Shown: positions 1,285 to 32,598 of the stretch, piece by piece
Layout: each line of letters begins with the position of its first letter
Numbering within the stretch: position 1 is the stretch's first letter
Assembly (NCBI GenBank): GCA_963814065.1
Contig: CAWFBL010000001.1
Span: forward strand, 193,663 to 257,662
DNA from: an uncultured Pseudomonadota bacterium
GTDB lineage: Bacteria > Pseudomonadota > Alphaproteobacteria > Rhizobiales > Xanthobacteraceae
DNA: 64,000 nucleotides
Reading direction: 5' to 3'
The notes under the pieces: model-generated
Told to the model about the DNA's origin: nothing
The model's database searches: none
What the model saw: the letters and a program-made list of their open reading frames with translations, nothing else
Translations under genes and position numbers: made by a program

Positions 1285-1350
1285 CGAACCGCCGGCCGCC
1301 ATGTGCAACGGCGCAAACGCGATGCGCCATTCGATATTGGAGTTCATGGA

Positions 1351-2985: not shown

Positions 2986-3009
2986 GCCTCGCGCTGCCGG
3001 ACGCGCGGT

Positions 3010-10432: not shown

Positions 10433-11040
10433 TGTTCGACAGCCTCAAATCGATCGTCGGCGGCTTGAACATCTTCGACCTGCGCGCGCCGGCGCAGTTT
10501 CGCTTCTATTCGATCCACGGATTTGCCATCTATCTTCTGAGCTACGCCCTGGTCGTGATTTACGACACGCTGTTCACCGACAAATGCATCAACGCCGTCG
10601 CCTCCGGCTGGCAGGACATCGCCAAGCAGTGCGGACTGAGCGCGGGCGCCATCGTCTTTCCCTTCTTCTACATGCTCGGCGCTTATGTCGTGATCAGCCT
10701 GTTCAAACGGACGGATTGGTCGGCGGACGCCGTCTTCAACAACTTGAGCCTGTTGATCGTGATCGAGGCGCTCGTGACGGGGCTCGTCTACCAGTTCGGT
10801 CTGGTGCGGGCGGTCCAGGGCTGCCCGCTCTGTTACTTCATCGCGCTCGGCGTGCTTGCCGTCGCGGCGCTCGGCGCAATCTCGGTGCTGGCGGAGCGCC
10901 ACGCGCGGCCGCCGCAGTGGACGCTCGCGATGGGCTTGCGCGCCTCGCCCGGCATTGTGCGTTTGACGGCGATCTATGTCGTGCTCAGCATGCTCTTTTT
11001 TATCGTGCCGTACGCGGTCAAGTTTGGCCTGACGCCCTAG
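10432..11040 (+). CDS. Hypothetical 5-TM membrane protein with a loop Cys pair and an intramembrane CxxC (VKOR/DsbB-like arrangement)
   Basis: 202 aa with about five hydrophobic segments. Cys52 and Cys67 lie in the loop after TM1 ([19 protein letters not shown]). The CPLC motif (Cys131/134) sits at the start of the fourth hydrophobic segment. The start shares one nt with the upstream stop. The family assignment is inference only. Confidence 0.6.
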
Positions 11041-12023
11041 TCGCTCGCCAGCACCACCGCGCAGGTGGTGACGATGTCGTTTTCGCTGGCGCCGCGCGAC
11101 AGATCGCTGATCGGCTTGGCGAAGCCCTGCAGGAACGGCCCGATGGCGGTGGCGCCGCCCAGCCATTGCGTCAGCTTGTAGCCGATATTGCCGGAATCGA
11201 GATCGGGGAAGATCAGCACATTGGCTTGGCCAGCGACCGCGCTCGGCTCCTTCACCTTCTTAGCGGCGACGTCGGGCACCAGCGCGGCATCGGCCTGGAA
11301 CTCGCCGTCGGCGGCAAGCGACGGCTCGCGCTCGTGCACCAGCGCCAGTGCTTGGCGCACCTTGTCGATGTGCGCGTGTTGCGCGCTGCCCTTGGTCGAG
11401 AACGACAGCATGGCGACGCGCGGGCTTTCGCCGAGCAGCGCTTGGGCGCTGCGCGCCGAGGCAATGGCGATGTCGGCCAGTTCGCCGGCGTCCGGGTCGG
11501 CATTGACCGCGCAATCGGCGAACACGAAGGAGCGTGCACCGGCCCCAAGGAAATTCGGCACCACCATGAGAAAATAGCTCGACGGCAGGCCGACCTTCTC
11601 GGCCAGGCCCACGGTCATCAAGCCGGCTTCGATCACCCGCCGGGTCGGATTGGCGGCGCCCGCGACCATGGCGTCGGCGTCGCCCTGGCGCAGCATCATG
11701 CCACCGAAATAGAGCGGCTTGCTGACAAGCCGCGTCGCCATCGCCGGCGTCATGGAATCGCGCGTTGCCGCAAGTGCGGCGCCGTAGGTGTGCAGCCGTG
11801 CGTCCTTGCGCGCATCGACGAGTTCAATCCCATCAAGCGAGACGTTGAGGGTCTTGGCGGCTTCATGAATGACGTTCGTCTCGCCGATCAGAATGGGCTG
11901 CGCGATTTTCTCATGTGAAAGGCGAGCCGCGGCCGCAACAATGCGCGCGTCCTCGCCTTCCGGCAAAACGACTTTGCGATGGCGACGACGTGCGATATCA
12001 AACAACCTATCAAGTAAGTCCAT
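11037..12023 (-). CDS. pta: Phosphate acetyltransferase (short Pta/PTA_PTB family)
   Basis: N-terminus [24 protein letters not shown] and C-terminal SRGAS..DIV are typical of phosphotransacetylase. 328 aa is the normal size for the short form. Convergent 4-nt overlap with the upstream CDS. Confidence 0.85.
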
Positions 12024-12026
12024 TCA

Positions 12027-12041
12027 TCTCACCACGTGAGA
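12027..12041. promoter_or_regulatory. Palindrome TCTCA-CCACG-TGAGA in the 44-bp pta / citrate-synthase divergent intergenic region (candidate operator)
   Basis: Perfect 5-bp inverted arms with a 5-nt spacer, 4 nt upstream of the pta start codon. The same half-sites and spacing recur at 13335..13349. Confidence 0.45.
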
Positions 12042-12067
12042 AAACGCCGACCGAGACGAGGCCATCA

Positions 12068-13210
12068 ATGACCGAAACCGCCGAAGCGATCAAGATTCAA
12101 CGCGGGCTGAGAGGCGTCTATTTCGACCGTTCGCCGTGCACTTTTATCGACGGCAAGGCCGGCGATCTGCGCTACCGCGGCTATTCGATTCACGATCTCG
12201 CCGAGAAATCGAGCTTCGAGGAAGCCGCCTATCTGCTGCTGCACGACGATCTGCCGAATGCGCAGCAGCTTGCCACGTTCGATGCCGAGCTCAAGGCCGC
12301 GCGCAAGCTGCCGCAGCCGATTTACGACATCATTCGCGCGACCAAGTCGGCGCATCCGATGGACGTGTTGCGCACGGCGGTGTCGGCGCTTGCCGCCTTC
12401 GATCCCGAGACCGCGGACAATTCGCACGAGGCCACCTTGCGCAAGGGTGTGCGGCTTTCTTCGCAGGTACCCATGATCGTCGCCGCGCATTCGCGCATCC
12501 GCGACGGGCTCGAGCCGGTGACGCCCGACAATTCGCTCGGCCACGCCGGCAATCTGTTGTGGATGCTGCGCGGCGAGAAACCGAGTGCCGACGCCACCGA
12601 ATTGATCGACCGCGATCTCATCCTGCACGCCGAGCACGGCTCTAATGCATCCTCCTTCGCCGCGCGCGTTGTGATCGGCACCGACGCCAATCTGCATGCC
12701 GCGATCACCGCCGCCATCGCGGCGCTGTCGGGGCCCGCCCATGGCGGCGCCGCCGAGGACGTCATGAAGATGGCGGAGGAGATCGGCGATCCCGCCCGCG
12801 CCGCCGACTACGTGAAAGAGCAGCGCAAGGCCGGCGTTCCCATCACCGGCTTCGGCCATCGCGTCTATCGCGCCGAGGATCCGCGCGCGCGCCACATGCG
12901 TGCCGGCGTCGAGCGGTTGTCGAAGGAGATGGGACAGCCGAAGTGGTACGAGATCCTGCAGGCGGTTGTGCAGGCGATGGCGCCTTACGCGCGCCACGGC
13001 GTCAACGTGAACGTCGATTTCTATTCCGGCGTCGTCTACCACCTGCTCGGCGTCAAGCGTGACCTGTTCGTGCCGCTGTTTGCCATCGGCCGGGTGCCGG
13101 GCTGGGTGGTGCAGGTGCTCGAGCAGCTCGACAACAACATCCTGATCCGGCCGCTCACCCTCTACAACGGCCCGGAGCTGCGCACCTACCGGCCGATCGC
13201 CGAGCGCTAG
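12068..13210 (+). CDS. Citrate synthase family protein (small type, citrate/2-methylcitrate synthase-like)
   Basis: Catalytic motifs LILHAEHGSNASSF, GFGHRVYRAEDPRA and NVDFYSG. 380 aa counted from the ATG at 12068 (MTETAEAIK...). The longer ORF start at 11915 would overlap pta. Confidence 0.85.
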   Translation: MTETAEAIKIQRGLRGVYFDRSPCTFIDGKAGDLRYRGYSIHDLAEKSSFEEAAYLLLHDDLPNAQQLATFDAELKAARKLPQPIYDIIRATKSAHPMDVLRTAVSALAAFDPETADNSHEATLRKGVRLSSQVPMIVAAHSRIRDGLEPVTPDNSLGHAGNLLWMLRGEKPSADATELIDRDLILHAEHGSNASSFAARVVIGTDANLHAAITAAIAALSGPAHGGAAEDVMKMAEEIGDPARAADYVKEQRKAGVPITGFGHRVYRAEDPRARHMRAGVERLSKEMGQPKWYEILQAVVQAMAPYARHGVNVNVDFYSGVVYHLLGVKRDLFVPLFAIGRVPGWVVQVLEQLDNNILIRPLTLYNGPELRTYRPIAER

Positions 13211-13231
13211 CGCGTGATCCCGAAAATACCT

Positions 13232-13252
13232 GTCCCCGACCTGATCGGGGAC
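13232..13252 (+). terminator. Stem-loop after the citrate-synthase-like gene
   Basis: GTCCCCG-acctgat-CGGGGAC, a 7-bp perfect stem 22 nt after the stop. There is no clear U-tract, so it may be a REP-like hairpin rather than an intrinsic terminator. Confidence 0.4.
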
Positions 13253-13334
13253 GGGGCCGGCTTTCGATGCGCAGACAGGGTGTTGGGAGCAGCCAGCGCT
13301 TCGATTTGATCGGAGCAGAAAATTTCCTATCAAA

Positions 13335-13349
13335 TCTCACTAAATGAGA
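13335..13349. promoter_or_regulatory. Palindrome TCTCA-CTAAA-TGAGA upstream of tctC (candidate operator)
   Basis: Perfect 5-bp arms with a 5-nt spacer, in the A/T-richer 269-bp intergenic region about 130 nt upstream of the tctC ATG. Same architecture as 12027..12041. An extra TGAGAC half-site lies at 13426..13431. Confidence 0.45.
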
Positions 13350-13479
13350 CGTTGGGTCGCAAAATCTGATTGCGGCCTCGGGGTACTTTTGCTTATCATC
13401 AAGGTAAGAAAAATAGTCCCATTCTGTGAGACTTTAGCGATCGGCAACAAAGCCGACGCGATGAGGGAGGAGATATAAA

Positions 13480-14448
13480 ATGACGATCATGCGCAGGCTC
13501 ACTGTTTTCGGCGTTGCGCTCTCGATGGGTTTATCCGTCGGGGCGATGTCGGCGCAGGCCGCTTATCCGGACCATCCGATTAACTTCATCGTGCCGTGGG
13601 GCGCCGGCGGCGGCGCCGACGTGCTGGCGCGTACCTCCGGCAAGATCATGTCGCAGGACCTCGGCGTCTCCGTGCCGGTGATCAACGTTCCAGGCGCGAC
13701 CGGCATGACCGGGATGACGAAGCTTCTGACGTCGCCAGCCGACGGCTATTCCATGGCCGTGCTGATCGGCGACACCTACGCGCTGCTGGCCGGCGCGCAC
13801 CCGGCGTTCAGCGCCGACAAGGTGATCCCACTCGCGATCATGATTCAGCAGCCCTCGGGCCTGTGGGTGAATGCCAAGCGGCCGTGGAAGACTTGGCAGG
13901 AATTTGCCGCGGCGGCGAAGAAAAAGACAATGAAGGTCGCCGAGCTCGGATTCGGGAGCGCCGACGACATCACCGTGAGCTATCTGAAGACCAAGGGCCT
14001 CAAGCTCGAGGGTATCCCCTACGCCAAGCCCGGCCTGCGCTACACTTCGATTCTCGGCAATAACGCCGACGCGCTTTACGAGCAGACAGGCGACGTGCGC
14101 AGCTACTTCGACGGCGGCAAGATTCGGCCGCTCATCTTCTTCTATCCGCACCGGCTCAAGTTGCCGCAATTCAAGAACGTCCCGGCCGGCCCGGAGTTCG
14201 GCATTGACGTCACGCTGCCGCAGTTCCGCGCCATCGTGGTCAAGGCCGGTACCGATCCGAAGATCGTCAAGCGGTTATCCGATGAGCTCGGCAAGGTGGC
14301 GCACACCTCGGAATTCAAGGCCTATCTCGACAAGCAATATGCCGACCCTGACAGCTACGTGTCCGCGGACGATGCGCGAAAGTTCATGGATTCGTGGCTG
14401 CAGCAGGCCAAGAAGTTCCGCAAAGAGACCAAGATGGGCGCCAAGTGA
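13480..14448 (+). CDS. tctC: Tripartite tricarboxylate transporter (TTT) substrate-binding protein, TctC/Bug family
   Basis: Signal peptide followed by AAYPDHPINFIVPWGAGGGADVLAR...VINVPGATGM, a typical Bug/TctC N-terminus. 322 aa. Strong SD GGGAGGAG upstream. Confidence 0.9.
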   Translation: MTIMRRLTVFGVALSMGLSVGAMSAQAAYPDHPINFIVPWGAGGGADVLARTSGKIMSQDLGVSVPVINVPGATGMTGMTKLLTSPADGYSMAVLIGDTYALLAGAHPAFSADKVIPLAIMIQQPSGLWVNAKRPWKTWQEFAAAAKKKTMKVAELGFGSADDITVSYLKTKGLKLEGIPYAKPGLRYTSILGNNADALYEQTGDVRSYFDGGKIRPLIFFYPHRLKLPQFKNVPAGPEFGIDVTLPQFRAIVVKAGTDPKIVKRLSDELGKVAHTSEFKAYLDKQYADPDSYVSADDARKFMDSWLQQAKKFRKETKMGAK

Positions 14449-15008
14449 CGCCGGGCTCGACCATATCGCCGGTTCGCCGGCTGCAGGCAGCGCTTCCTTA
14501 CGTGGTGGTGTTTGCGGTCGGCATCTTCCTCTTCTACGTGGCCGGCCAATTCGACTTCGAGCAGGTGTCGGGGCGTATTGGTCCCGGCGCTTGGCCGCAA
14601 CTGATCCTGGTCCTCATGTTGGCGACCGCGCTTTGGGGCATCGTCTCCAGCGCCATCAAGGCCGGTCAGCCGGAGGTGATCGACCAAACCGAGGCTGAGG
14701 ACGCCGAGGAGTTTGTGCGGCCGCCAGAGATTTATCCTTGGATGGTGTGGCTCGCGGTGGTGACCACCGTCGTCTACCTCGTGCTGCTGCCAATCTTCGG
14801 CTTCTTCCTGTCGACGATCGTTTACAGTGCCGCGCTCATGTATCTCGGTCACTTCCGCCGGCCGCTGGTGGTCGCGGGCATGAGCGTCGCAATCGCTTTT
14901 GGCTTCATGTTCGTCTTCATGCGTGTCGTCTACGTCGCGCTGCCGCTCGGCGTGCCACCTTTCGAGCAAATCTCATACGGGCTCATGGCTGCCATGGGCG
15001 TGCACTGA
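14445..15008 (+). CDS. tctB: TTT small membrane subunit, TctB family
   Basis: Small 4-TM hydrophobic protein between tctC and tctA. I chose the GTG at 14445 because it overlaps the tctC stop (GTGA). The literal ORF start at 14394 would overlap tctC by 55 nt. Confidence 0.7.
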   Translation: MTPGSTISPVRRLQAALPYVVVFAVGIFLFYVAGQFDFEQVSGRIGPGAWPQLILVLMLATALWGIVSSAIKAGQPEVIDQTEAEDAEEFVRPPEIYPWMVWLAVVTTVVYLVLLPIFGFFLSTIVYSAALMYLGHFRRPLVVAGMSVAIAFGFMFVFMRVVYVALPLGVPPFEQISYGLMAAMGVH

Positions 15009-15018
15009 GGGCGATGTT

Positions 15019-16551
15019 GTGATCCTGACCAACCTGGCTCACGGCTTCCTGCAGGTCTTCCAGCCTTTCGACCTGCTCATGCTATTCGTTGGCTTGGTGG
15101 TCGGCATGGCGGTGTCCATCATGCCGGGCCTCGGTCTGGTGATGGGCGTCGTGCTCGCCTTGCCCTTCACCTACAAGATGCAGATTGAGCCGTCGGTCAT
15201 CCTGCTGACGGCCATCTATTTCTCCGGCACCTATGCCGGCTGCTTCACGGCCATCCTCTACCGAATTCCCGGAGAGCCGATGGACGTACCGATGCTGTGG
15301 GACGGCTATACCATGGCGTCACGGGGCCAGCCGGCAAAGGCGCTCGGCTGGGCGCTGGTCGCCGCCCTCATCGGCGGCCTGGTCTCGTCCGCCGTCATGG
15401 TACTGCTCGCCGATCCGATGAGCGAGCTGGCGCTCAAATTCGACTCTCCCGATTATTTCGCGGCGGTGTTTTTCGGCCTTACCACGGTGGTGGCGCTGGC
15501 CGGCAAATCGATGGTCAATTCGTTGATCAGCCTTTGCGTCGGCCTGCTGGTCGCTACCGTCGGCATCGACAGCATCTACGGCACGCCGCGCTTCACCTTC
15601 GGAGTGCCGATCCTGCAGGACGGTGTTCAACTGGTCGAGGTGCTGGTCGGCATGTACGGTCTCGGCGAGGTGCTGTCGCGCATCGGCGAAGGCCTGCGGG
15701 TCAGCCAACTGGAAGGCGCGTCGAAGAAGGTGTCGACGCAGTTTCCCAGACTGCGTGAGCTCCTTGCGATCAAGAGCACGCTGTTTCGCAGCACGATCCT
15801 CGGGACGCTGCTCGGCATTGTGCCGGGCGCCGGTGCCACGATCACGGCCTTCATCTCCTACGGCGTCGAGAAACAATACGGCAAGCGTCGGCAACAGTTG
15901 GGTACCGGCTTGCCGGAAGGCATCGTGGCGCCACAGATCGGCGCCACCGCGTCGGTCGCCGGCCACATGATTCCGCTGCTCACGCTCGGGCTGCCCGGCA
16001 GCGGCGCGACGGCGGTGATCCTCGCCGCGTTCCTGCTGCACGGCGTGCAGCCGGGGCCGATGTTGCTGGAGGACCCGTCTTCGACGCTCCTGGTCTATTC
16101 CATTCTCGCCTCGATGTTCGTGAGCGTCATCGGCATGTGCATCCTCGGCTTCTTCTGGATCCGGGTGGTGATCAAGGTGCTGACTATCCCCCAGGGCCTG
16201 CTTTCGGCGATCGTGGTGATGTTCTGCCTGGTCGGTGCCTACGCCAACCGCAACAATATGTCCGACGTCTGGATGATCGTGATCTTCGGCGTGCTCGGAT
16301 ATCTCTTCGAAAAGTTTCGTTTCCCGATCTCGCCGATGGTGCTGGGCGCGATCCTCGGTCCCACCGGGGAGACCGCCTTCATGCGCAGCATGATCAGCGC
16401 CAACAACGACTGGACCGTCTTCTTCCGCGGCCCCATCAGCGGCACGCTGATGGTCGCTTCTTTGATTGCGCTCAGCTATCCCCTGCTGCGCGGGGTTTGG
16501 AATGCTAGGAGTCGTGGACAGGTCGTCGCCACGGCGGGCAACCGACAATGA
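15019..16551 (+). CDS. tctA: TTT large membrane subunit, TctA family
   Basis: About 510-aa polytopic protein with a TctA-like N-terminus (ILTNLAHGFLQVF..) and GLPGSGATAVILAAFL. I chose the GTG at 15019, just after the tctB stop. Confidence 0.88.
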   Translation: MILTNLAHGFLQVFQPFDLLMLFVGLVVGMAVSIMPGLGLVMGVVLALPFTYKMQIEPSVILLTAIYFSGTYAGCFTAILYRIPGEPMDVPMLWDGYTMASRGQPAKALGWALVAALIGGLVSSAVMVLLADPMSELALKFDSPDYFAAVFFGLTTVVALAGKSMVNSLISLCVGLLVATVGIDSIYGTPRFTFGVPILQDGVQLVEVLVGMYGLGEVLSRIGEGLRVSQLEGASKKVSTQFPRLRELLAIKSTLFRSTILGTLLGIVPGAGATITAFISYGVEKQYGKRRQQLGTGLPEGIVAPQIGATASVAGHMIPLLTLGLPGSGATAVILAAFLLHGVQPGPMLLEDPSSTLLVYSILASMFVSVIGMCILGFFWIRVVIKVLTIPQGLLSAIVVMFCLVGAYANRNNMSDVWMIVIFGVLGYLFEKFRFPISPMVLGAILGPTGETAFMRSMISANNDWTVFFRGPISGTLMVASLIALSYPLLRGVWNARSRGQVVATAGNRQ

Positions 16552-16562
16552 ACGGGTAGATC

Positions 16563-17450
16563 ATGCGCACCAACATCGACCTCGAACCGAAGTCCGTTGA
16601 CGCGGGAGGCATCCCGACCGCGACGCCGCGTTTGGCGCGACGTGAACGCCAAGCGGGTGGCCGCTCCTCCGGTCCGAGAGCGCCGCGCCCCAAGAAGCTC
16701 GGTGCCACGGCGCGCTCCTTCGCCATCCTCGAACACGTCGCGGCATCGTCCGCGCCGGTGGACGTGATCGACATCATCGACAATCTGAAGCTGCCGAAGG
16801 CGACCGCCTACCGGCTGGTCGATTGGTTCGTCATTCACGGCTATCTTTCGCGCGAGCCCGGTCGCAAGCGGCTGATCGTCGGGCCCAAGCTCGCCAATCT
16901 GGCCTTCGGCGCGCTGTCGTGCTCGATGCGCTACGACGCGCCTCATATGGTGCTGCAGCGCCTGGTGCGTGGCCTCAACGAGACCTGCAACATCGGCACG
17001 CTGCTCAACGGCGAGGTGGTCTATCTCGACCGCGTGGAAGCCGACGACTGGCCATTGCGGCTGCATTACACGACCGGCTCGCGCGTGCCGCTGCATTGCA
17101 GCGCGATCGGCAAGCTGTTCCTGTCGCTGGCGCCGGCGCCGCGCCGCCAGCGGCTGTTGCAGAGCCTGGAGCTGGCGCGCTTCACCGAACACACCATCAC
17201 CGAACGCGGGCAGCTCGAGGCCGAGCTGCGGCAGGTCCGCAAGGACCAGGTGGCGTTCGACCGCGAGGAATATCTGATCGGTGTCGTCTGCGCCGCGGTG
17301 CCGGTAATCGGTCGCAACGGCAGCATTCTGGCCGCGCTCGCGGTGCAGGCGCCGGAAGCGCGCATGAACGTCGAGGCCGCGACCGGCTATCTGCCGATCC
17401 TGCGCCGCGCCGCCGGCGAGCTCGCCGAGATCTTCGAGGCGAAAGCCTGA
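16563..17450 (+). CDS. IclR family transcriptional regulator
   Basis: HTH region SFAILEHVAASSAPVDVIDIIDNLKLPKATAYRLVDWF, followed by an IclR effector-domain-like C-terminus (LHCSAIGKLFL, EEYLIGVVCAAVPV). The N-terminal 40 aa are Arg/Pro-rich, so the true start is uncertain. Confidence 0.8.
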   Translation: MRTNIDLEPKSVDAGGIPTATPRLARRERQAGGRSSGPRAPRPKKLGATARSFAILEHVAASSAPVDVIDIIDNLKLPKATAYRLVDWFVIHGYLSREPGRKRLIVGPKLANLAFGALSCSMRYDAPHMVLQRLVRGLNETCNIGTLLNGEVVYLDRVEADDWPLRLHYTTGSRVPLHCSAIGKLFLSLAPAPRRQRLLQSLELARFTEHTITERGQLEAELRQVRKDQVAFDREEYLIGVVCAAVPVIGRNGSILAALAVQAPEARMNVEAATGYLPILRRAAGELAEIFEAKA

Positions 17451-17518
17451 CCGCCGCAATTGGGGGCGAAAAGATTCCGATGACAGTCAAGTTGGGTATT
17501 TAAAAAGGAACTACCTCG

Positions 17519-19294
17519 ATGAAGATGACGACTGAAGAAGCCTTCGTGAAGGTGTTGCAGATGCACGGCATCGAGCATGCCTTCGGCATCATTGGATCGG
17601 CTTTCATGCCGATCTCCGATCTTTTCCCCGCGGCTGGCATCACCTTCTGGGACGTGGCGCATGAATGCAACGGCGCGCTGATCTGCGACGGCTACACCCG
17701 TTCGACCGGCAAGATGGCGATGGCGATCGCGCAGAACGGTCCAGGCATCACCAATTTCGTCACGCCGATCAAGACCGCCTACTGGAACCATACGCCGATG
17801 CTGCTGGTGACGCCGCAGGCCGCCAACAAGACCATGGGGCAGGGCGGCTTCCAGGAAGTCGAGCAGATGGCGCTGTTCCGCGACATGGTCTGCTACCAGG
17901 AAGAAGTGCGCGATCCGTCGCGCGTGGCTGAAGTGCTCAACCGCGTCATCAGCAAGGCCAAGCGCCTGTCGGCGCCGGCGCAGATCAACATCCCGCGCGA
18001 TTTCTGGACGCAGGTGATCGACATCAACTTGCCGCAGATCATCGAGTTCGAGCTGCCGTCCGGCGGCGCCCATGCCATCTCGGAAGCGGCCAAGCTGCTG
18101 TCGTCGGCCAAGTTCCCGGTGATCCTGTCGGGCGCCGGCGTCGTCATCGGCAACGCTATTCCCGAATGCGTGGCGCTCGCCGAAAAGCTCGACGCGCCGG
18201 TCTGCAACAATTACCAGCACAACGACAGCTTCCCCGGCAGCCACCCGCTCGCGGTTGGGCCGCTCGGCTACAACGGCTCCAAGGCCGGCATGGAGCTGGT
18301 CGCCAAGGCCGACGTGGTGCTGGCGTTGGGCACCCGGCTCAATCCGTTCTCGACCTTGCCGGGCTACGGCATCGACTACTGGCCGAAGGACGCCAAGATC
18401 ATCCAGGTCGACATCAATGCCGACCGCATCGGCCTGACCAAGCCGGTCACCGTCGGCATCTGCGGCGATGCCAAGCTGGTGGCGAAAGCCATCCTCGAGC
18501 AGCTCGCGCCGACCGCCGGCGATGCCGGCCGCGCCGACCGCAAGGCGCTCATCCACCAGACCAACTCGCGCTGGCTGCAGGCGCTGTCCAGCATGGACCA
18601 CGAGGACGACGACCCGGGCACCACCTGGAACGCGGATGCCCGCAAGCGCGACGCCGACCGCATGTCGCCGCGCCAGGCCTGGCGCGCCATCCAGGCCGGC
18701 CTGCCCAAGGACGCCATCATCACCAGCGACATCGGCAACAACTGCGCCATCGGCAACGCCTATCCGATGTTCGACGAGGGCCGGAAATATCTGGCGCCCG
18801 GCCTGTTCGGGCCGTGCGGCTACGGCTTCCCGGCGATCATCGGCGCCAAGATCGGCAATCCCGATACGCCTTGCGTCGGCTTTGCCGGCGACGGCGCCTT
18901 CGGCATCTCCATGAATGAGATGAGCTCGGTCGGGCGCGAGGAATGGCCCGGCGTGACCATGGTGATCTTCCGCAACTACCAATGGGGCGCCGAGAAGCGC
19001 AATTCGATCCTCTGGTACGACAACAACTTCGTCGGCACCGAGCTCGATCCGCATCTCAGTTATGCCAAGGTGGCGGTGGCCTGCGGGCTGAAAGGCGTGC
19101 AGGTGAAGACGCAGGCCGAGCTGACGGAGGCGCTGCGCCAGTCCTGCGAGGACCAGAAGAAGCGCATCACCACCTTCATCGAGGTGCTGCTGAACCAGGA
19201 ACTGGGCGAGCCCTTCCGCCGCGACGCCATGAAGAAGCCGAACGTGGTCGCCGGTATCAAGCGCGAGGACATGCGGCCGCAGAAGGTCGCTTGA
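17519..19294 (+). CDS. xsc: Sulfoacetaldehyde acetyltransferase (ThDP enzyme, EC 2.3.3.15)
   Basis: 591 aa. The N-terminus MKMTTEEAFVKVLQMHGIEHAFGIIGSAFMPISD...IAQNGPGITNFVTPIKTAYWNHTPMLLVTPQA..GQGGFQEVEQMALFRDMVCYQEEVRDPSR matches my memory of characterised Xsc proteins closely. The ThDP motif GDGAFG..N is present. pta lies in the same locus. Confidence 0.85.
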   Translation: MKMTTEEAFVKVLQMHGIEHAFGIIGSAFMPISDLFPAAGITFWDVAHECNGALICDGYTRSTGKMAMAIAQNGPGITNFVTPIKTAYWNHTPMLLVTPQAANKTMGQGGFQEVEQMALFRDMVCYQEEVRDPSRVAEVLNRVISKAKRLSAPAQINIPRDFWTQVIDINLPQIIEFELPSGGAHAISEAAKLLSSAKFPVILSGAGVVIGNAIPECVALAEKLDAPVCNNYQHNDSFPGSHPLAVGPLGYNGSKAGMELVAKADVVLALGTRLNPFSTLPGYGIDYWPKDAKIIQVDINADRIGLTKPVTVGICGDAKLVAKAILEQLAPTAGDAGRADRKALIHQTNSRWLQALSSMDHEDDDPGTTWNADARKRDADRMSPRQAWRAIQAGLPKDAIITSDIGNNCAIGNAYPMFDEGRKYLAPGLFGPCGYGFPAIIGAKIGNPDTPCVGFAGDGAFGISMNEMSSVGREEWPGVTMVIFRNYQWGAEKRNSILWYDNNFVGTELDPHLSYAKVAVACGLKGVQVKTQAELTEALRQSCEDQKKRITTFIEVLLNQELGEPFRRDAMKKPNVVAGIKREDMRPQKVA

Positions 19295-19329
19295 GGAACG
19301 CGTGTTGTTTGAACAACGCCACATACCAT

Positions 19330-19425
19330 CCGTTCGTCCCCGCGAAAGCGGGGACCCAGCGCTAGAAACGCCAAGGTCCGAGTGCGTGGTGCTGGATTCC
19401 CGCTTGCGCGGGAATGAGCGGAGTG
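19330..19425. repeat. Bipartite REP-like element (hairpin GTCCCCGCGAAAGCGGGGAC plus hairpin ATTCCCGCTTGCGCGGGAAT)
   Basis: Two perfect GC-rich hairpins at 19336-19355 and 19396-19415, between xsc and the ALDH gene. The same composite occurs in the opposite orientation at 42655-42745 and 50622-50715. Confidence 0.8.
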
Positions 19426-19452
19426 CGGTGAGCTTGATGGAGTGAAAGAACG

Positions 19453-20877
19453 ATGACAGTCGCTGTGAAGGCCCCGCTCGACGCCAATATCACGTCGGTG
19501 GTCGACGACATGGTTCGCCGCGCGCGCGCCGCCATGGCCGAGTTCGGCAAGGCGGATCAGGCGCGCGTCGACGAGGCGGTCACCGCGCTCGCCTGGGCGC
19601 TCTACAATCCGGCGCACGCCCAGGAACTGGCCGAGCTCGCGGTCGCCGACACCAAGCTCGGCAACGTGCCCGACAAGATCATCAAGAAGACGCGCAAGAC
19701 CTTCGGCACCTTGCGCGATCTGTTGCGGGTCAAGACCGTCGGCATCATCGAGGAAGACAAGGCGAAAGGCATCGTCAAGTACGCCAAGCCGGTCGGCGTG
19801 GTCTGCGCCATCACGCCGTCGACCAACCCGGGCGCCACGCCCGTCAACAAGGCGATGATGGCGATCAAGGGCGGCAATGCCGTCATTATCGCGTCCTCGC
19901 CCGCCGGCATGAAGACCACCGGCAAGACCGTCGATTACATGCGCGCCGAACTGAAGAAGATCGGCCTGCCGGAAGACCTGGTGCAAATCCTGCCGCCGCC
20001 GGCGTCCAAGGACATGACGCAGGCGCTGATGAAGGCGGCCGATCTGGTGGTCGCCACCGGCTCGCAGGACAATGTCCGCCGCGCCTATTCGAGCGGGACG
20101 CCGGCGATCGGCGTGGGCTTGGGCAACGTGCCCGTGATCGTCGACGAGACCGCCGATCTCGATGACGCGGCTGCCAAGATTTGCGCCTCCAAGATCTTCG
20201 ACAATTCGACCTCCTGCTCGTCGGAGAATTCGGTCATCCTGGTCGATGCCATCTACGACCAGGCCATCGCCGCGCTCGAGCGCGTCGGCGGTTACATGGC
20301 CTCGGCCGAGGAGAAGACGAAGATCCAGGCCGCGCTCTGGCCCGACGGCAAGCTCAGCCGCTATCTGATCGCGCGCGACGCCGACGTGCTGGCGCGCGGC
20401 TGCGGTCTGCCGGCGGAAGCGGAAGCCAAGAAGTTCTTCATGGTCGAGGAAACCGGCGTCGGCCGCGAGCATCCGTTCTCCGGCGAGAAGCTGTCGCTGG
20501 TCCTGACCGTCTACCGCGCCAAGGATTTCGAGGACGCGATCGCGATCTCGCATGCCATTCTCAATTATCAGGGCCGAGGCCATTCGGTCGGCCTGCACAC
20601 CAAGGACATGAGCCGCGGGCGCACGCTCGCCGAATGCTCCGACGTGGTGCGCGTGCTGATCAATCAGGCGCACACTTTCGGCAACGGCGGCGGTTTCGAT
20701 AACGGGCTGAACTTCACCCTCAGCATGGGTTGCGGCACTTGGGGCGGCAATTCCATCACCGACAACCTGAACTACACGAACTTCATCAACATCACCCACC
20801 TCGTCACCACCATTCCGGAAGACAAGCCGAGCGAGCAAGACCTGTTCGGCGCGTATTGGAAAAAGTACGGGAAATAG
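19453..20877 (+). CDS. CoA-acylating aldehyde dehydrogenase (EutE/PduP-like; candidate sulfoacetaldehyde dehydrogenase, acylating)
   Basis: 474 aa with ITPSTNPGATPVNKAMMAIKGGNAVI and NSTSCSSENSVILV (catalytic Cys), typical of the acylating ALDH subfamily. The substrate is inferred from the adjacent xsc. Confidence 0.8.
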   Translation: MTVAVKAPLDANITSVVDDMVRRARAAMAEFGKADQARVDEAVTALAWALYNPAHAQELAELAVADTKLGNVPDKIIKKTRKTFGTLRDLLRVKTVGIIEEDKAKGIVKYAKPVGVVCAITPSTNPGATPVNKAMMAIKGGNAVIIASSPAGMKTTGKTVDYMRAELKKIGLPEDLVQILPPPASKDMTQALMKAADLVVATGSQDNVRRAYSSGTPAIGVGLGNVPVIVDETADLDDAAAKICASKIFDNSTSCSSENSVILVDAIYDQAIAALERVGGYMASAEEKTKIQAALWPDGKLSRYLIARDADVLARGCGLPAEAEAKKFFMVEETGVGREHPFSGEKLSLVLTVYRAKDFEDAIAISHAILNYQGRGHSVGLHTKDMSRGRTLAECSDVVRVLINQAHTFGNGGGFDNGLNFTLSMGCGTWGGNSITDNLNYTNFINITHLVTTIPEDKPSEQDLFGAYWKKYGK

Positions 20878-20884
20878 TTCTGGT

Positions 20885-20978
20885 GTCGTCCCCGCGAAGG
20901 CGGGGACCCGGTACGCCGTGGTCTTTGATAGCGCGCGGCGTACTGGATCCCGGGTCTCGCTTCGCTCGCCCGGATGAC
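20885..20978. repeat. REP-like composite (GTCCCCGCGAAGGCGGGGAC hairpin plus a GGATCCCGGG...CCCGGATGAC hairpin)
   Basis: Hairpin at 20888-20907 is related to the 19336 copy. The second GC-rich inverted repeat lies at about 20946-20975. The element sits between the ALDH and the sucC-like gene. Confidence 0.7.
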
Positions 20979-21021
20979 AGCAGAGGATGCGGCGAACGCA
21001 TCGAACGACGGACCAAACACA

Positions 21022-22149
21022 ATGAACTTCGAAGAACACGCGGCGAAATCGCTGATCCTGATGCCCGCCGAGATCCCCGTGCCGCGCGGGGTGCTCTGCA
21101 CCAGCGCGGCGGAAGCCGCCAAGGCGGCGCAACAAATCGGCCCCTGCGTGGTCAAGGCGCAGGTGCCGACCGGCAAGCGCGGCAAGGCCGGCGGCATCAA
21201 GCTCGCCAACAGCCCTGCGGAAGCCGAGCGGGTGGCCGGCCAGATCCTCGGCATGACGATCGGTGATTACACGGTCGAGCGCCTGCTGATCGAGGAGCAG
21301 GGCAAGATCGAGCGCGAGTTCTACGCCGCCGTGCTGCACGACACCGCCGCGCGCAAGCCGCTGATCCTGTTCTCCACCGAAGGCGGCATGGATATCGAGG
21401 AGATCGCCGCCGAAAAGCCGCAGGCGATCCGCCGGCTGCTGGTCGAGATCGGCGGTGCGCCGACGTCGCACGACATCGCCGACATGCTCGCCGGCCTCGA
21501 TCTCGGCGATGCCGAGGCGCAGATCGCCGACATCCTCGAAAGGCTTTACGCCGCTTACCGCGCGCGCGACGCCGAGCTCTTGGAGATCAATCCGCTGGCG
21601 CTGCTCGCCGACGGCCGGGTGGTGGCGCTCGATTGCAAGTTCGTGCTCGACGATGCCGCTGTCTATCGCCAGGCGCAGATCGCGCCGCACGGCTCGCCCG
21701 GCGCCATGACCGAGCTGGAGCGGCGCGGGGCCGAGGCCGGCCTCAAGCTCATCCAGCTTGACGGCAATGTCGGCGTGCTCGCCAACGGCGCCGGCCTCAC
21801 CATGACCACCATGGATGTGATCAGCCATTTCGGCGGCCGGCCGGCCAACTTTCTCGAGATCGGCGGCGAGGCCTACACCAAGGCCGAGATCGCGCTCGAT
21901 CTGGTGCTGTCCAATCCCGGCGTCAAAAGCCTGGTGATCAATTTCTGCGGCGCCTTCGCCCGCACCGACGTGATGGCCGATGGCGTGGTGAAGGCTTGGG
22001 CTAAGTTGAAACCGAAGGTGCCGGTGTTCTTCTCCATCCACGGCACCGGCGAGGACGAAGCGGTGGCGCTGGTGCGCCAGCAGCTCGGCATCGAACCCTA
22101 CGATTTCATGGAAGACGCCATCCAGGCGGCGGTGAAGGCAGCGCAATGA
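21022..22149 (+). CDS. ADP-forming acyl-CoA ligase beta subunit (succinyl-CoA synthetase SucC-like, ATP-grasp)
   Basis: N-terminus MNFEEHAAKSLIL...VVKAQVPTGKRGKAGGIKLA aligns with the SucC N-terminus (MNxHEYQAK...KAQV..GGRGKAGGV). Also NPL...DCKFVLDDAA and NGAGLTMTTMD. I chose the ATG at 21022 because the earlier ATG lies inside the REP element. Confidence 0.85.
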   Translation: MNFEEHAAKSLILMPAEIPVPRGVLCTSAAEAAKAAQQIGPCVVKAQVPTGKRGKAGGIKLANSPAEAERVAGQILGMTIGDYTVERLLIEEQGKIEREFYAAVLHDTAARKPLILFSTEGGMDIEEIAAEKPQAIRRLLVEIGGAPTSHDIADMLAGLDLGDAEAQIADILERLYAAYRARDAELLEINPLALLADGRVVALDCKFVLDDAAVYRQAQIAPHGSPGAMTELERRGAEAGLKLIQLDGNVGVLANGAGLTMTTMDVISHFGGRPANFLEIGGEAYTKAEIALDLVLSNPGVKSLVINFCGAFARTDVMADGVVKAWAKLKPKVPVFFSIHGTGEDEAVALVRQQLGIEPYDFMEDAIQAAVKAAQ

Positions 22150-23010
22150 TTGTTCGTAAAAATGACCGCGTGATCGTGCTCGGCATCACCGGCAAGCAAG
22201 GCACGTTCTGGACCGAGAAGATGATCGCCTACGGCACCAATGTGGTGGCCGGGGTCCATCCCAAGGGGGCGGGCGAAGATCATGTCGGCGTGCCGGTGTT
22301 CGCCTCCACCGCGGAGGCGGTCAAAGCGGTCGGCGGCGACGTCGCGGTCATGTTCATCCCGCCGCCGATGGCGAAGGACGCCGCGGTGTCGGCGGCCGAA
22401 GCCGGCGTCAAGCTCCTGGTGGTGCTCACCGAACACATCCCGGCGCAGGACGTGATGGCGATGCATGCGGCTGCCGCCAGGCACGGCACGCGCATCGTCG
22501 GCCCCAACACCGCCGGCCTGGTGACGCCGGGCCAATGCTTCGTCGGCATCATGCCGGCCTTCGTGCCGAGCGTATTCGCGCCCGGCCGCGTCGGCGTGAT
22601 CTCGCGCAGCGGCAGCCTCGGCACGCTGGTCTGCCTCAACCTCACCCGCGCCGGTCTCGGCCAATCGGCCTTCATCGGTATCGGCGGCGATCCCATGCTC
22701 GGCACCACGACCACGCAGGCGCTACAGGCGTTGGACAACGATGCCGGCACCGACGCCATCGTCATCGTCGGCGAGATCGGCGGCGGCATGGAAGAGGCGG
22801 CCGCCGAGTACGCGAAGAAGGTGCGCAAACCGATGGTCGCCTTCATCGCCGGCGCCGCGTCGCCGCCGGGCAAGAAGATGGGGCATGCCGGCGCCATCGT
22901 CACCGGCAACGCGGGGAGCTATGCGGGCAAGCGCAAGGCGCTGGAAGCGGCAGGTGTCACGGTCGTCGACACGCCCGCCCAGATCGCGCCTGCGATCGCT
23001 GCCGGGTTGA
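22146..23010 (+). CDS. ADP-forming acyl-CoA ligase alpha subunit (SucD-like); normal stop codon missing, literal ORF runs on to 24374
   Basis: ATGA start/stop overlap with the sucC-like gene. SucD motifs present: VIVLGITGKQGTF, GPNTAGLV, SRSGSLG, GIGGDP, and MGHAGAIV (phosphohistidine loop). Homology ends near aa 288 (..PAQIAPAIAAGLK). The current frame has no stop for another 1.36 kb. A TGA lies in the +1 frame at 23008-23010. Confidence 0.75.
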
Positions 23011-23054
23011 AAGACGCCGCTGCGTCAAGCCGCGGCGCAATAGCGTATTCGCAT

Positions 23055-23081
23055 CTCCCTCTCCGCAACGGGGAGAGGGAG
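23055..23081. terminator. Perfect 10-bp stem hairpin (CTCCCTCTCC-n7-GGAGAGGGAG) between the convergent sucD-like and LysR genes
   Basis: Seen directly in the sequence. The position fits a bidirectional terminator or REP. The open sucD-like frame reads straight through it. Confidence 0.55.
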
Positions 23082-23147
23082 CGCGCTACGCTCGCCGCAT
23101 TGCTTCAGCTTAGAACGAACCGCCTGGAAATTCCCACATGCCGCCGC

Positions 23148-24056
23148 CTAAGCGGTGCGCACCGGCCGCGGCTCGCTAACTTTGGTGACGATGCTGAGGA
23201 ACGCTTGCGCGGCCTTGGACTGATAGCGCTCGTGGTGACGCACCACGAGGAATGGGCGCGTCGGCAACTTGAACGTCATCGCCACCAGCGTGCCGGCGCG
23301 CAGTGCCGCTTCCACCACCAGTTCCGAGATCGCGGTCACGCCGGCGCCGGCTTCGATGGCGGAGCGCACGGCTTCGTTGGTCGGCAGTTCGAGCGCGACC
23401 TTCAGCGCCTTCGGCGATACTCCCCGGCCGGCGAGGAACGCTTCGAACTCCGAGCGCGTGCCGGAGCCCGGCTCGCGCAGCACCCACTCGCCGTCGGCAA
23501 TGTCCCGCTCTGTCAGGCGTTTCTTGCGGGCCCACGGATGATCGGCGGCAACGACGACGACCAGCCGGTCGTGGTCGATGGTGCTTTGCAGGAGGGCCGC
23601 ATCCTCGACACGGCCCTCGACGAAGCCGAGCTCGGCGTCGCCGTCATGCACGGCTTTGGCCACCTGGGCGGTGTTGCCGACCGTGAGCTTGATGTCGATC
23701 TGCGGATGGGCGCGGCGGAAGGCGACCAGGCGCGGCGGCAGCCAGTAGCTGGCAATGGTCTGGCTGGCCTGGACGCTGAGCGTGCCGCGCTTGAGGCCGG
23801 TCAGTTCCGAAAGCGCGAGTTCCGCTGCGGCGGCGCGGGCGAGGACTGCCCGGGCCTCATTCAGGAACAGCCGGCCTTCGGCGTTCAATTCGATGCGGCG
23901 GCCGACCCGGTCGAACAGCGCCACGCCGTACTGGTTCTCGAGGGCGGCGACGGCGGCGCTGACGGCGGACTGGGTCAGGCGCAGCGTCTCGGCCGCGCGG
24001 GTCACATGCTCACATTCGGCGACGGCGACAAAGATGCGGAGCTGCTCAAGCGTCAT
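23148..24056 (-). CDS. LysR family transcriptional regulator
   Basis: N-terminal HTH MTLEQLRIFVAVAECEHVTRAAETLRLTQSAVSAAVAALE..., 302 aa. The start lies 3 nt after the stop of the upstream YeiH-family gene, so the two form an operon. Confidence 0.9.
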   Translation of the reverse strand: MTLEQLRIFVAVAECEHVTRAAETLRLTQSAVSAAVAALENQYGVALFDRVGRRIELNAEGRLFLNEARAVLARAAAAELALSELTGLKRGTLSVQASQTIASYWLPPRLVAFRRAHPQIDIKLTVGNTAQVAKAVHDGDAELGFVEGRVEDAALLQSTIDHDRLVVVVAADHPWARKKRLTERDIADGEWVLREPGSGTRSEFEAFLAGRGVSPKALKVALELPTNEAVRSAIEAGAGVTAISELVVEAALRAGTLVAMTFKLPTRPFLVVRHHERYQSKAAQAFLSIVTKVSEPRPVRTA

Positions 24057-24059
24057 GCC

Positions 24060-25115
24060 TCAAGAATAGACGGTCAGCTTCACCAGCACGAGTGCGAAGA
24101 TGGCGATAAAGAGCCACGCGGCCGCGGCCAGCGCCAGGGGCTTCAGCCCTTCGGCCTTGAGCTTGCGGAAGTCGGTCTCGATCCCCATGGCCGCCAGCGC
24201 CATGGACAGCAGGAAGGTGGTCACGACCGCGATCCAGGCCTTGGGGGCGGCCGGGATGGTGACGACGCTGTTGAGGATCACCAGGGCGACGAAGCCGAGC
24301 ACGAACCAGGGCATGGGCGGCGCGGCGCGGGAGCCGCTGTCGGTGGTATGGGCGGCGCGGCGCATGGCGACTAGGCCGAGGGTGATGACGACCGGGGCCA
24401 GCATCATGACACGGGTGAGCTTGGCCACGGTGCCGATCTCGCCGGCATGGGCGCCGTCCTGGAAGGCGGCGGCGACGACCTGGGCGATCTCGTGGATCGA
24501 GGCGCCGGTCCACAGGCCGAAGGCTTGCGGATTGAGGTGCAGCAGGCCCGGCAGCAAGGGGTAAAGGAACATCGAGAGCGAGCCGAACACAGTGACGCAA
24601 GCCACCGCATAGGCCACGTCCTCGTCGCGGCCGCCGGTCACCGTATTGGTCGCGATCACCGCCGATGCACCACAGATCGAGGTGCCGGCCGCGATCAGCT
24701 CGGCGACTTTGCGGTCGACGCCCATCAGGCGGCCGAGCCACTTGGTGAAGACGAAAGTCGCGATCAGGGTGGTGGCAATGATGGCCACGCCGCTCATGCC
24801 GACCTGCGCGACCTGCGAGGCCATGAGCTGCAGACCGAGCAGGATGATGCCGAGCCGCAGCACCCGCTTCAGGCTGAAGGTGACGCCGGGCTTGGCCCAG
24901 CTCGGCGTGCCGATGACGTTGTGGAAGGCCATGCCGATCAAGGTGGCGAGGATCATCGGGCTCAGGATCGCCACGCCCGGGATGTGACGCAGGGCAAAGG
25001 CCAGCCCCGCCACGCCCGCCGTCAGCACCAGGCCAGGGACCACGGCGATGAGATCGCCGCGCGCCGGGCGGGCTATCCGCGATACGGATTGTTGGGCGGT
25101 GGCGATCTCGGACAT
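24060..25115 (-). CDS. YeiH/UPF0324 family membrane protein (annotated in databases as putative sulfate exporter family transporter)
   Basis: About 351-aa polytopic protein with YeiH-like segments ([28 protein letters not shown]). I chose the ATG at 25115, preceded by AAAGGAG at a 7-nt spacing. The longer ORF start at 25163 lacks an RBS. Confidence 0.8.
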
Positions 25116-25186
25116 GACTGGGCTCCTTTTCGGGGCCCAATATGCTGCGTCGCGGCTAATCAATCCAACTTATTATTATTATAGTA

Positions 25187-25207
25187 TCGTTCGAAAATAT
25201 AGAACGA
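25187..25207. promoter_or_regulatory. Palindrome TCGTTC-gaaaatata-GAACGA in an A/T-rich stretch upstream of the yeiH-lysR operon (candidate LysR-type site)
   Basis: 6-bp perfect inverted arms around a 9-nt A/T spacer, 72-92 nt upstream of the yeiH-family start. It sits in the only strongly A/T-rich segment of this region (25160-25210, includes a (TAT)4 run). Confidence 0.4.
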
Positions 25208-25276
25208 ATGTCGCGCGCCGGCCGACGCCGCCTTGCGGCTCTGGACTGCCCGCGCGGTTGCCGCGCGAGGCGCCGA

Positions 25277-27252: not shown

Positions 27253-27270
27253 GCCTCGGACTTCCGCACC

Positions 27271-31720: not shown

Positions 31721-31761
31721 TCGCGCGCAATCCTTATCCGACCAACAACGAGAACCAGAAG

Positions 31762-32556: not shown

Positions 32557-32598
32557 GGCGCCTTGGGCTCAACGAAGCCCGACGGGGAGGAGACGGTT

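Follow-up and report, generated by a model that had tools for sequence, protein, structure and literature searches.

The 64-kb window analysed here, 64,000 nucleotides of contig CAWFBL010000001.1 from an uncultured member of the Xanthobacteraceae, contains a compact block of genes with which a Pseudolabrys-like alphaproteobacterium from soil probably breaks down sulfoacetate. The block opens with pta (11037-12023, reverse strand; PF01515, E=2e-106), coding for a phosphate acetyltransferase that would convert acetyl phosphate to acetyl-CoA, and a gene for a citrate synthase II or 2-methylcitrate synthase paralogue (12068-13210, forward strand; PF00285, E=4e-121) that diverges from pta over a 44-bp spacer. 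From tctC onward all genes lie on the forward strand. They encode the periplasmic binding protein (tctC, 13480-14448; PF03401), small membrane subunit (tctB, 14445-15008; PF07331) and large membrane subunit (tctA, 15019-16551; PF01970, E=5e-132) of a tripartite tricarboxylate transporter (TTT) importer, followed by an IclR-family regulator that is a candidate SauR-like protein (iclR, 16563-17450; PF09339 and PF01614), a 591-aa sulfoacetaldehyde acetyltransferase of the thiamine diphosphate enzymes (xsc, 17519-19294), a 474-aa acylating sulfoacetaldehyde dehydrogenase (sauS, 19453-20877), and the two subunits of a putative ADP-forming acid-CoA ligase. The latter are a 375-aa ATP-grasp beta subunit (sauC-like, 21022-22149; PF08442 and PF00549) and a CoA-binding, phosphohistidine alpha subunit (sauD-like, 22146-23043; PF02629 and PF00549). 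A first-pass annotation of the window had named tctCBA, iclR, xsc, an acylating dehydrogenase, sucC- and sucD-like genes and pta, all of which are present. It had described those from tctC onward as a co-directional run, which is correct, with pta at the upstream edge; pta is on the opposite strand and divergent from a citrate synthase gene that had gone unmentioned.

As the window is GC-rich (62-69%), many spurious open reading frames (ORFs) overlap the real ones. Real genes were chosen by third-position GC, by Pfam and NCBIfam matches, and with the help of a public contig that is 98-99% identical (L001); its gene calls supplied gene limits, including the start of the citrate synthase gene and both limits of tctB. 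The sauC-like start at 21022 is the one called in database homologues; a 391-aa ORF begins at 20974.

At the level of protein family, the identities of Xsc, SauS and Pta are established through curated hidden Markov model cut-offs. Xsc scores 1027.8 bits with NF005713 (cut-off 620) and 950.6 bits with TIGR03457 (cut-off 676.4), and reaches 290.9 bits with the best acetolactate synthase model, below its cut-off of 538; it is 80-82% identical to the annotated xsc products of Azospirillum and Indioceanicola. The aldehyde dehydrogenase (ALDH) scores 795.2 bits with NF047625, the equivalog model for acylating sulfoacetaldehyde dehydrogenase (cut-off 600), and stays under the cut-offs for EutE-, AdhE- and PduP-type enzymes (TIGR02518, 316 against 620; PRK15398, 208 against 403). 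The catalytic-cysteine stretch TSCSSEN is conserved in SauS, which is 67-70% identical to SauS of Azospirillum and Indioceanicola, 54% to a Sulfitobacter SauS linked to the AMP-forming ligase SauT, 44% to SSRB-type SauS, and 53% over 468 aa to the SauT-linked SauS of Caballeronia plasmid pNK83, a sauRSTU-type protein that stands in for Cupriavidus necator SauS. An exact-sequence search with the 474-aa protein matched no contig. Pta passes TIGR00651 (318.1 bits, cut-off 311.2) and NF007233 (340.9 bits, cut-off 310), and the citrate synthase passes TIGR01800 (430 bits, cut-off 421). From its family assignment, SauS is predicted to form sulfoacetaldehyde and CoA from sulfoacetyl-CoA and NAD(P)H. 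Xsc presumably converts sulfoacetaldehyde and Pi to acetyl phosphate and sulfite, a predicted activity that the adjacent pta supports.

The sauC-like and sauD-like genes, which come right after sauS and overlap by 4 nt, encode complete SucC and SucD domain sets, and the phosphohistidine motif MGHAGA is retained in the sauD-like product. Both subunits nevertheless fall below the curated cut-offs for succinyl-CoA synthetase, the sauC-like protein at 350.2 against 370 and 322.6 against 375.6 for SucC, the sauD-like protein at 334.1 against 336 and 336.3 against 353.2 for SucD. The sauC-like protein is also far under the cut-off for MtkA, the malate-CoA ligase (259.7 against 604). Among the PDB matches the nearest solved structure is Thermus SucC, with none closer. 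No AMP-forming or AMP-binding ligase of the SauT type is encoded in the window.

The residues predicted to line the substrate pocket also differ from those of succinyl-CoA synthetase. In the pig enzyme, alpha Tyr167 and the backbone of the beta GIV motif hold the carboxylate at the distal end of succinate; HpfYZ has His and GIN at these positions. Two SucCD-family sulfo-acid ligases, HpfYZ of Enterococcus gilvus (3-sulfopropionate) and SqwKL of Acholeplasma (sulfoacetate), have been characterised (PMC11489063). Canonical SucCD enzymes carry SRSGTLTYE in the alpha subunit and FGGI(V/M)R and NFLD.GGG in the beta subunit. The corresponding motifs are TRSGSLTNE, FGTIAR and NYLEFGG.NY in SqwKL and in an SSRB-type ligase (L090, described below), and SRSGSLGTL, CGAFAR and NFLEIGG.AY in the clade of the window ligase. 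The alpha tyrosine is accordingly Asn in SqwL, His in HpfZ and Thr in the window SauD, and a three-residue loop insertion, located just upstream of the alpha motif in the window clade, is found in SqwL and the window SauD, not in HpfZ or pig SucD. These altered distal-carboxylate motifs exclude an ordinary succinate enzyme, and by its sequence the pair is not a canonical SucCD.

Comparison with other genomes ties the ligase to sauS. An alignment scan with SauS, using one genome per species and tblastn for the neighbours, yielded 80 closest loci, with SauS identities of 66-91%. Almost all of them come from metagenome-assembled genomes (MAGs), assigned to Pseudolabrys, uncultured Alphaproteobacteria, Rhodospirillales, Hyphomicrobiales and several Gammaproteobacteria. 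At 70 of these loci sauC and sauD directly follow sauS; the remainder have a SauT-like gene (one locus), a contig edge (three) or neither ligase type (six). An xsc lies within the same block at 35 loci, pta occupies the corresponding position at 34, and the citrate synthase gene occurs with xsc and pta at 33, a Hyphomicrobiaceae locus (L065) included. The whole block of pta, citrate synthase, TTT, iclR, xsc, sauS and sauCD is found at 31. Since the full block recurs in 31 species-level genomes and sauS-sauC-sauD at most of the SauS loci, the gene arrangement is far beyond chance, and the conserved neighbourhood that the first-pass annotation had proposed as a check on its reading is evident. 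Soil metagenomes contain hundreds of proteins that are 85-100% identical to the SucC-like protein itself, and one of these is named Pseudolabrys sp.

The same ligase clade, the sauS-sauC-sauD order, an IclR protein and xsc also occur in plasmid clusters of Azospirillum argentinense and A. brasilense, Indioceanicola and Rhodococcus. On plasmid p4 of A. argentinense Az39 and on a plasmid of Indioceanicola profundi the order is iclR-pta-tctCBA-sauS-sauC-sauD, followed by a molybdoenzyme trio that we take, from its annotation, to be SoeABC-like. In Azospirillum xsc lies just downstream of the trio, and in Indioceanicola it lies upstream on the opposite strand. The window SauC is 67-70% identical to its Azospirillum and Indioceanicola counterparts and 50% to that of Rhodococcus, and SauD is 71% identical to the former two. 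These clusters differ from the window in several parts. The pta-like gene of Azospirillum and Indioceanicola belongs to another PTA_PTB lineage (25% identical), and the Azospirillaceae TTT is, unlike that of the window, of the type of the sulfoacetate-binding protein SauZ (55-61% identical to Sulfitobacter TctC). Plasmid pDK2 of Rhodococcus sp. DK180 encodes xsc, pntAB, an MFS transporter in place of the TTT, sauS, sauC, sauD, iclR and tauE; plasmids of strains DK17 and DK176 share its SauS match, the SauS match alone being the basis of comparison there. All three plasmid versions, in Azospirillum, Indioceanicola and Rhodococcus, lack the citrate synthase gene, whose product is 87% identical to its counterpart in a related locus (L002). 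PGAP labels the plasmid ligases generically as succinate--CoA ligase, ATP-grasp protein or CoA-binding protein. Related SauS proteins are encoded with the other ligase type on Caballeronia sp. NK8 plasmid pNK83, in the classical layout of IclR, SauS, AMP-binding ligase and MFS transporter, and on a Sulfitobacter plasmid, as SauS, SauT and tctCBA. One sauS lineage accompanied by either ligase type is what non-orthologous replacement predicts.

Coenzyme A transferase genes were seen near sauS genes as well. Plasmid NZ_CP149788 of Haloterrigena sp. KLK7 (L096, 3949-9577) carries tctCBA and a gene for a SauS-like ALDH (52% identical), then a CoA transferase gene instead of a ligase, and in L002 a family III CoA-transferase gene (12018-13148) abuts sauD. 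A CoA transferase beside SauS may be a further, ATP-free way to sulfoacetyl-CoA.

Given these gene assignments, we consider it probable, at good though not full confidence, that the block encodes an assimilatory sulfoacetate pathway made up of a TTT, an ADP-forming SucCD-type ligase, SauS, Xsc, Pta and citrate synthase. Sulfoacetate would be taken up by the binding-protein-dependent importer TctCBA and activated by the SauC-like/SauD-like ligase to sulfoacetyl-CoA, with ATP going to ADP and Pi via the phosphohistidine. SauS would then reduce sulfoacetyl-CoA to sulfoacetaldehyde, which Xsc would cleave phosphorolytically to acetyl phosphate and sulfite, and Pta would convert acetyl phosphate to acetyl-CoA. 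The co-located citrate synthase II probably draws acetyl-CoA into the tricarboxylic acid (TCA) cycle, and is presumably a dedicated acetyl-CoA sink. This mechanism is supported by Xsc and SauS scores above their cut-offs, ligase scores below the SucCD and malate-CoA ligase cut-offs, the linkage of the ligase to sauS, and a window free of AMP-forming ligase genes. It is from genomic context that we infer the substrates of ligase and transporter, the direction of flux, and the roles of the IclR protein and the citrate synthase.

The pathway is not new chemistry; it is a further example of a kind described in 2023, in a different ligase lineage. The first-pass annotation had stated that it knew of no characterised SucCD-type sulfoacetate-CoA ligase. 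Such an enzyme had by then been purified, SauCD of the gut bacterium Bilophila wadsworthia, for which Pi and ADP release and sulfoacetyl-CoA formation were measured (Liu et al., J Biol Chem 2023; PMC10413351). Its Km for sulfoacetate is 1.07 mM, with side activities of 20% on 3-sulfopropionate and 7% on malonate, and in the same study Bilophila SauS was characterised and SauZ of the TTT SauXYZ was found to bind sulfoacetate with a Kd of 0.13 uM. A survey of SauZ-homologue neighbourhoods there described alpha- and gammaproteobacterial clusters as "mostly" SauT-type, most organisms having Xsc as the C-S cleaving enzyme (PMC10413351). A 2025 study annotated clusters of sauSCD with a TTT in marine MAGs (PMC12625764). 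As SauCD with SauXYZ/SauZ, SqwKL and sauSCD+TTT clusters have all been reported, both replacements proposed in the first pass, of the ligase and of the transporter, are of established kinds. Its central suggestion, an ADP-forming SucCD-type sulfoacetate ligase with TTT uptake, is by genomic context the best-supported reading, and agrees with ligase scores under the SucC, SucD and malate-CoA ligase cut-offs.

The window combines features of several known systems. As in Bilophila SauXYZ-SauS-SauCD, a TTT importer, a two-subunit ADP-forming ligase and an acylating dehydrogenase are encoded side by side; however, Bilophila reduces sulfoacetaldehyde to isethionate with TauF and then uses the glycyl-radical enzyme IseG, whereas the window encodes Xsc and Pta. 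With SauRSTU of the aerobe Cupriavidus necator H16 (Weinitschke et al. 2010, per PMC10413351) it shares an IclR-type regulator, SauS and the Xsc/Pta chemistry. Unlike that system it has a two-subunit ADP-forming ligase for the AMP-forming SauT and a TTT for the MFS protein SauU, iclR is co-directional within the operon, and xsc, pta and the citrate synthase gene are in the same block. SqwD/SqwKL and HpfX/HpfYZ likewise pair SucCD-family two-subunit sulfo-carboxylate enzymes with an acylating aldehyde dehydrogenase, but these work in the oxidative, ATP-yielding direction in fermenters, and HpfYZ is specific for the C3 acid (PMC11489063). Finally, fold and domain order are shared with housekeeping SucCD (Thermus 3UFX, E. 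coli 1JKJ), and phosphohistidine catalysis is presumably the same; the window ligase differs in its identity of about 39-45%, its scores under the family cut-offs, its changed distal-carboxylate elements, and its partner gene, sauS rather than TCA-cycle genes.

Several results weigh against equating this ligase and transporter with the characterised ones. The comparisons use proxies rather than Bilophila E5Y8P8/E5Y8P7, SauZ or Cupriavidus SauS themselves, as no Bilophila-named sequence was present among 30 cluster representatives or in a homologue search seeded with the best SqwK match. The first set of proxies consisted of SqwK and SqwL fragments from a published supplement and of P0151, the best SqwK match among 150 SucC-superfamily representatives. 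The second was the SSRB cluster L090, in which genes for a SauI-type Na/sulfate symporter, ALDH, SucC, SucD and an iron-containing alcohol dehydrogenase adjoin genes for hydrogenase and DsrE, as in the arrangement that PMC10413351 describes for SSRB. Its ALDH is 39% identical to Caballeronia SauS, near the 37% published for BwSauS and CnSauS (PMC10413351), and its SauC is a widely seen relative of P0151 (65% identical). The window SauC is 40%, SauD 41-43% and SauS 44% identical to the L090 proteins, and canonical SucC is equally near to the window SauC at 39%. The window SauC is 41% identical to P0151, 45% to the published SqwK fragment and 39% to pig SucC.

In a neighbour-joining tree (200 bootstraps, with proxy sequences for the characterised enzymes), the SauS-linked proteobacterial ligases, the window SauC within them, form one clade with 100% bootstrap, and the SqwK/SSRB sequences form another, also with 100%. 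These two sulfoacetate-linked clades sit in different groups, supported at 94.5% and 93.5%, and the node uniting the groups has only 29.5% support. Each group also includes SucCD-like genes inside 2-oxoacid:ferredoxin oxidoreductase operons (L007 and L009). By both clade and identity, therefore, the window ligase lies outside close family membership with characterised SauCD/SqwKL. Because the sulfoacetate-linked clades fall in different supported groups, with oxidoreductase-linked genes in both, ligase function is not transferable by orthology. No sulfoacetate-specific sequence signature emerged, as beta NFLEIGG.AY and CGAFAR, alpha SRSGSLGTL and the three-residue insertion are all common to the oxidoreductase-linked relatives, and therefore these shared motifs exclude canonical SucCD only. 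Sulfoacetate is thus the presumed substrate of the ligase on account of its genomic context, not of close homology to characterised enzymes.

The nearest ligase relatives outside sau clusters (51% and 43% identical) close 2-oxoacid:ferredoxin oxidoreductase operons that also contain TTT genes (L007, 1021-10551; L009, 5739-17490), and the L009 operon adds genes for an aldehyde:ferredoxin oxidoreductase, an aminotransferase and an NMT1-type ABC binding protein. In L005 (3422-6422), genes of another SucCD-like clade with an ALDH link adjoin three tandem IS3-type transposase pairs (HTH_Tnp_1 and rve); sucD-like is inverted there and the ALDH gene apparently split.

The transporter raises a similar difficulty. 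TctC, TctB and TctA are encoded together, in the same block as sauS, sauCD and xsc. The window TctC is only 37% identical to SauZ-type proteins of Sulfitobacter (SauT-linked) and Azospirillum, used as stand-ins for BwSauZ and Q165A0, and these are 61% identical to one another, within a range of 55-61% across TctC proteins of sau clusters. The SauZ work stayed within one UniRef50 cluster (PMC10413351), and the window TctC lies outside such close homology to SauZ (about 50% identity or more). TctA is 39-40% identical to TctA of the Sulfitobacter, Azospirillum and Indioceanicola sau clusters. Comparison of the TTT modules of the window (13480-16551), L002 (2733-5679) and L010-L044 further revealed that closely related loci, with clusters otherwise 85-90% identical, have exchanged the module that separates the citrate synthase gene from iclR. 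In the Pseudolabrys group some loci have the window type (77-100% identical) and most an approximately 50%-identical type. L002, L029 and L010 carry a 28%-identical system with A-B-C gene order, 28% being also the identity of the L002 TctC in this slot to that of the window, and this system recurs beside sauS in other Hyphomicrobiales (L065, L069, L083). That TctC binds sulfoacetate is presumed from its operon position.

The uncertainty about the ligase bears on what else the enzymes might do. They could act on another short acid, such as malonate, 3-sulfopropionate, succinate or some other TTT-imported dicarboxylate, with only Xsc and Pta being sulfonate-related and the whole held together by shared regulation. 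The 51%-identical ligase relative in an oxidoreductase operon, the unspecific motif signature, the side activity of BwSauCD itself on 3-sulfopropionate and malonate (PMC10413351), the position of TctC outside the close SauZ family, and the fact that most non-Pseudolabrys sauS-sauCD loci are without xsc within 10 kb would all fit such a role. We nonetheless think it unlikely, as the ALDH exceeds the SauS equivalog cut-off widely (795 against 600) and is 53-54% identical to SauS of SauT-linked clusters, the SauS product sulfoacetaldehyde is the substrate of the adjacent Xsc, and xsc belongs to the block at 35 of the 80 loci and shares the plasmid with these genes in Azospirillum, Indioceanicola and Rhodococcus. 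That the sucC- and sucD-like genes are instead a housekeeping succinyl-CoA synthetase or malate-CoA ligase lying near xsc by chance has very little to recommend it. Succinyl-CoA synthetase subunits are the top Pfam, NCBIfam and PDB matches, and PGAP names the Indioceanicola homologue sucC. Yet the scores stay under all curated SucC, SucD and MtkA cut-offs, other residues stand in place of the alpha Tyr that contacts succinate and of the beta GGI(V/M) motif, the clade (100% bootstrap) stands apart from canonical SucC, and in 70 of 80 genomes the genes follow sauS rather than sucAB or mdh.

The direction of the pathway could also be the reverse of that proposed. Both the ALDH and the ligase reaction are reversible, and the oxidative direction is the physiological one for SqwD/SqwKL and HpfX/HpfYZ (PMC11489063, PMC10413351). 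Sulfoacetaldehyde derived from another sulfonate might be oxidised to sulfoacetyl-CoA and then sulfoacetate with a gain of ATP, in competition with Xsc, and the window ligase is no nearer the degradative Bilophila type than any other. Against this, the operon encodes an importer of a carboxylate-specific TTT family and not an exporter, the window yielded no taurine or isethionate dehydrogenase or aminotransferase as a source of sulfoacetaldehyde, the block also encodes Xsc, Pta and citrate synthase and so a complete assimilatory route, and related clusters add a SoeABC-like trio or TauE. Oxidative use is accordingly quite improbable. All of these alternatives are disfavoured by the presence of an importer, by a downstream route with no missing step, by the SauS equivalog score and by ligase scores under the SucCD cut-offs, leaving assimilation of sulfoacetate as the preferred reading.

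How the ligase came to this role is a separate question. Tentatively, the SauS-linked clade of Alphaproteobacteria, Gammaproteobacteria and Rhodococcus might represent an independent recruitment of a SucCD-like enzyme, convergent with the SauCD/SqwKL of Bilophila and Acholeplasma and using different pocket residues, a suggestion that draws on the neighbour-joining tree and the proxy sequences. Under this scenario, there would be at least three separate solutions to sulfoacetate activation, namely SauT and two SucCD lineages, with the haloarchaeal CoA-transferase route perhaps a fourth solution, and the ADP-forming version rather than SauT would be the common one in soil Hyphomicrobiales.

The IclR protein is likely the sulfoacetate-responsive regulator of the operon, judging by its position. 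It is 45-46% identical to IclR of the Azospirillum and Indioceanicola clusters and 38% to the divergent IclR of the Caballeronia sauRSTU-type cluster. A palindrome upstream of tctC (13303-13336) was considered as an IclR operator and rejected, not being conserved in related loci. A sigma-70 promoter scan found nothing, and terminator-like matches were mostly within genes. The spacers between xsc and sauS and between sauS and sauC, just 19 and 10 nt long in L002, are 158 and 144 nt in the window and each contain a copy of a dispersed intergenic repeat of about 100 nt with two GC-rich hairpins, GTCCCCGCGAAAGCGGGGAC and TTCCCGCTTGCGCGGGAA. The window has four copies, at 19334-19440, 20886-21000, 42620-42739 (reverse strand) and 50590-50709 (reverse strand). 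The hairpins in the operon were set aside as regulatory elements, being copies of a repeat also present at 42.7 and 50.7 kb. No Rfam family matched the repeat.

The 3' end of the sauD-like gene is irregular, which counts against the proposed reading. The first pass had ended the island at 23010, but the TGA at 23008-23010 is out of frame for sauD-like, which has no in-frame stop in the window assembly; the ORF is open from 22146 to 24374 (742 codons), running antisense through lysR. In L001 the sauD-like product is 298 aa and ends at a TAG. Relative to L001, the window has a 1-nt insertion near 23013, because of which the TAG at 23041-23043 is out of frame. The insertion could be an indel introduced in assembly or a genuine stop-loss mutation. 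Elsewhere in the window, a gene for a xanthine-dehydrogenase-family molybdopterin subunit (39073-41776, reverse strand) appears as two ORFs that overlap and each hold part of the MoCoBD_1 domain, probably a second frameshift. Given this second split-looking gene, an assembly indel is the simplest explanation for sauD-like. The 39073-41776 subunit gene sits in a purine-catabolism region with genes for urate oxidase, an amidohydrolase, DUF3830 and a polysaccharide-deacetylase-family protein.

Downstream of sauD-like, the region 23148-28062 contains a lysR regulator gene (23148-24056, reverse strand; PF03466/PF00126), a gene for a YeiH/PSE-family putative sulfate exporter (24060-25163, reverse strand; PF03601), and genes for a CBS-domain protein, an ATP sulfurylase with a PUA domain and a metallophosphoesterase, which may handle sulfite or sulfate. 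The exporter scores 204 bits with TIGR00698, below the cut-off of 233, and is possibly an outlet for oxidised sulfite; the association is a loose one, as L001 and L010 have the exporter gene and lysR beside sauD, whereas most related loci do not. The window revealed no sulfite dehydrogenase, and relatives have sox genes, a SoeABC-like trio or TauE. Further away are a TRAP (tripartite ATP-independent periplasmic) transporter gene dctM with a sulfatase gene (34-2985), a gene for a 2150-aa type I polyketide synthase (3010-9462, reverse strand), a TauD-family dioxygenase gene (30689-31720), and two beta-hydroxyacid dehydrogenase-like genes with a TRAP DctQMP system and an FAD-linked oxidase gene (32563-38933). 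The genes at 34-9462 and 30689-38933 may relate to organosulfur or acid uptake.

The breakdown of taurine and sulfoquinovose commonly ends in sulfoacetate, and organisms mineralising this compound therefore close part of the sulfur cycle. The findings suggest that the cheaper, ADP-forming activation of sulfoacetate is not confined to anaerobic sulfite reducers and is instead the standard partner of one SauS subclade. The ligase lineage concerned is distinct from the assayed enzymes, widespread in MAGs of soil Hyphomicrobiales and also carried by cultured strains of Azospirillum, Indioceanicola and Rhodococcus, and its cluster brings its own citrate synthase and an exchangeable TTT module. As public annotation labels such ligases succinate-CoA ligase or ATP-grasp protein, metabolic reconstructions would miss the pathway and miscount the genes of the TCA cycle in these bacteria.

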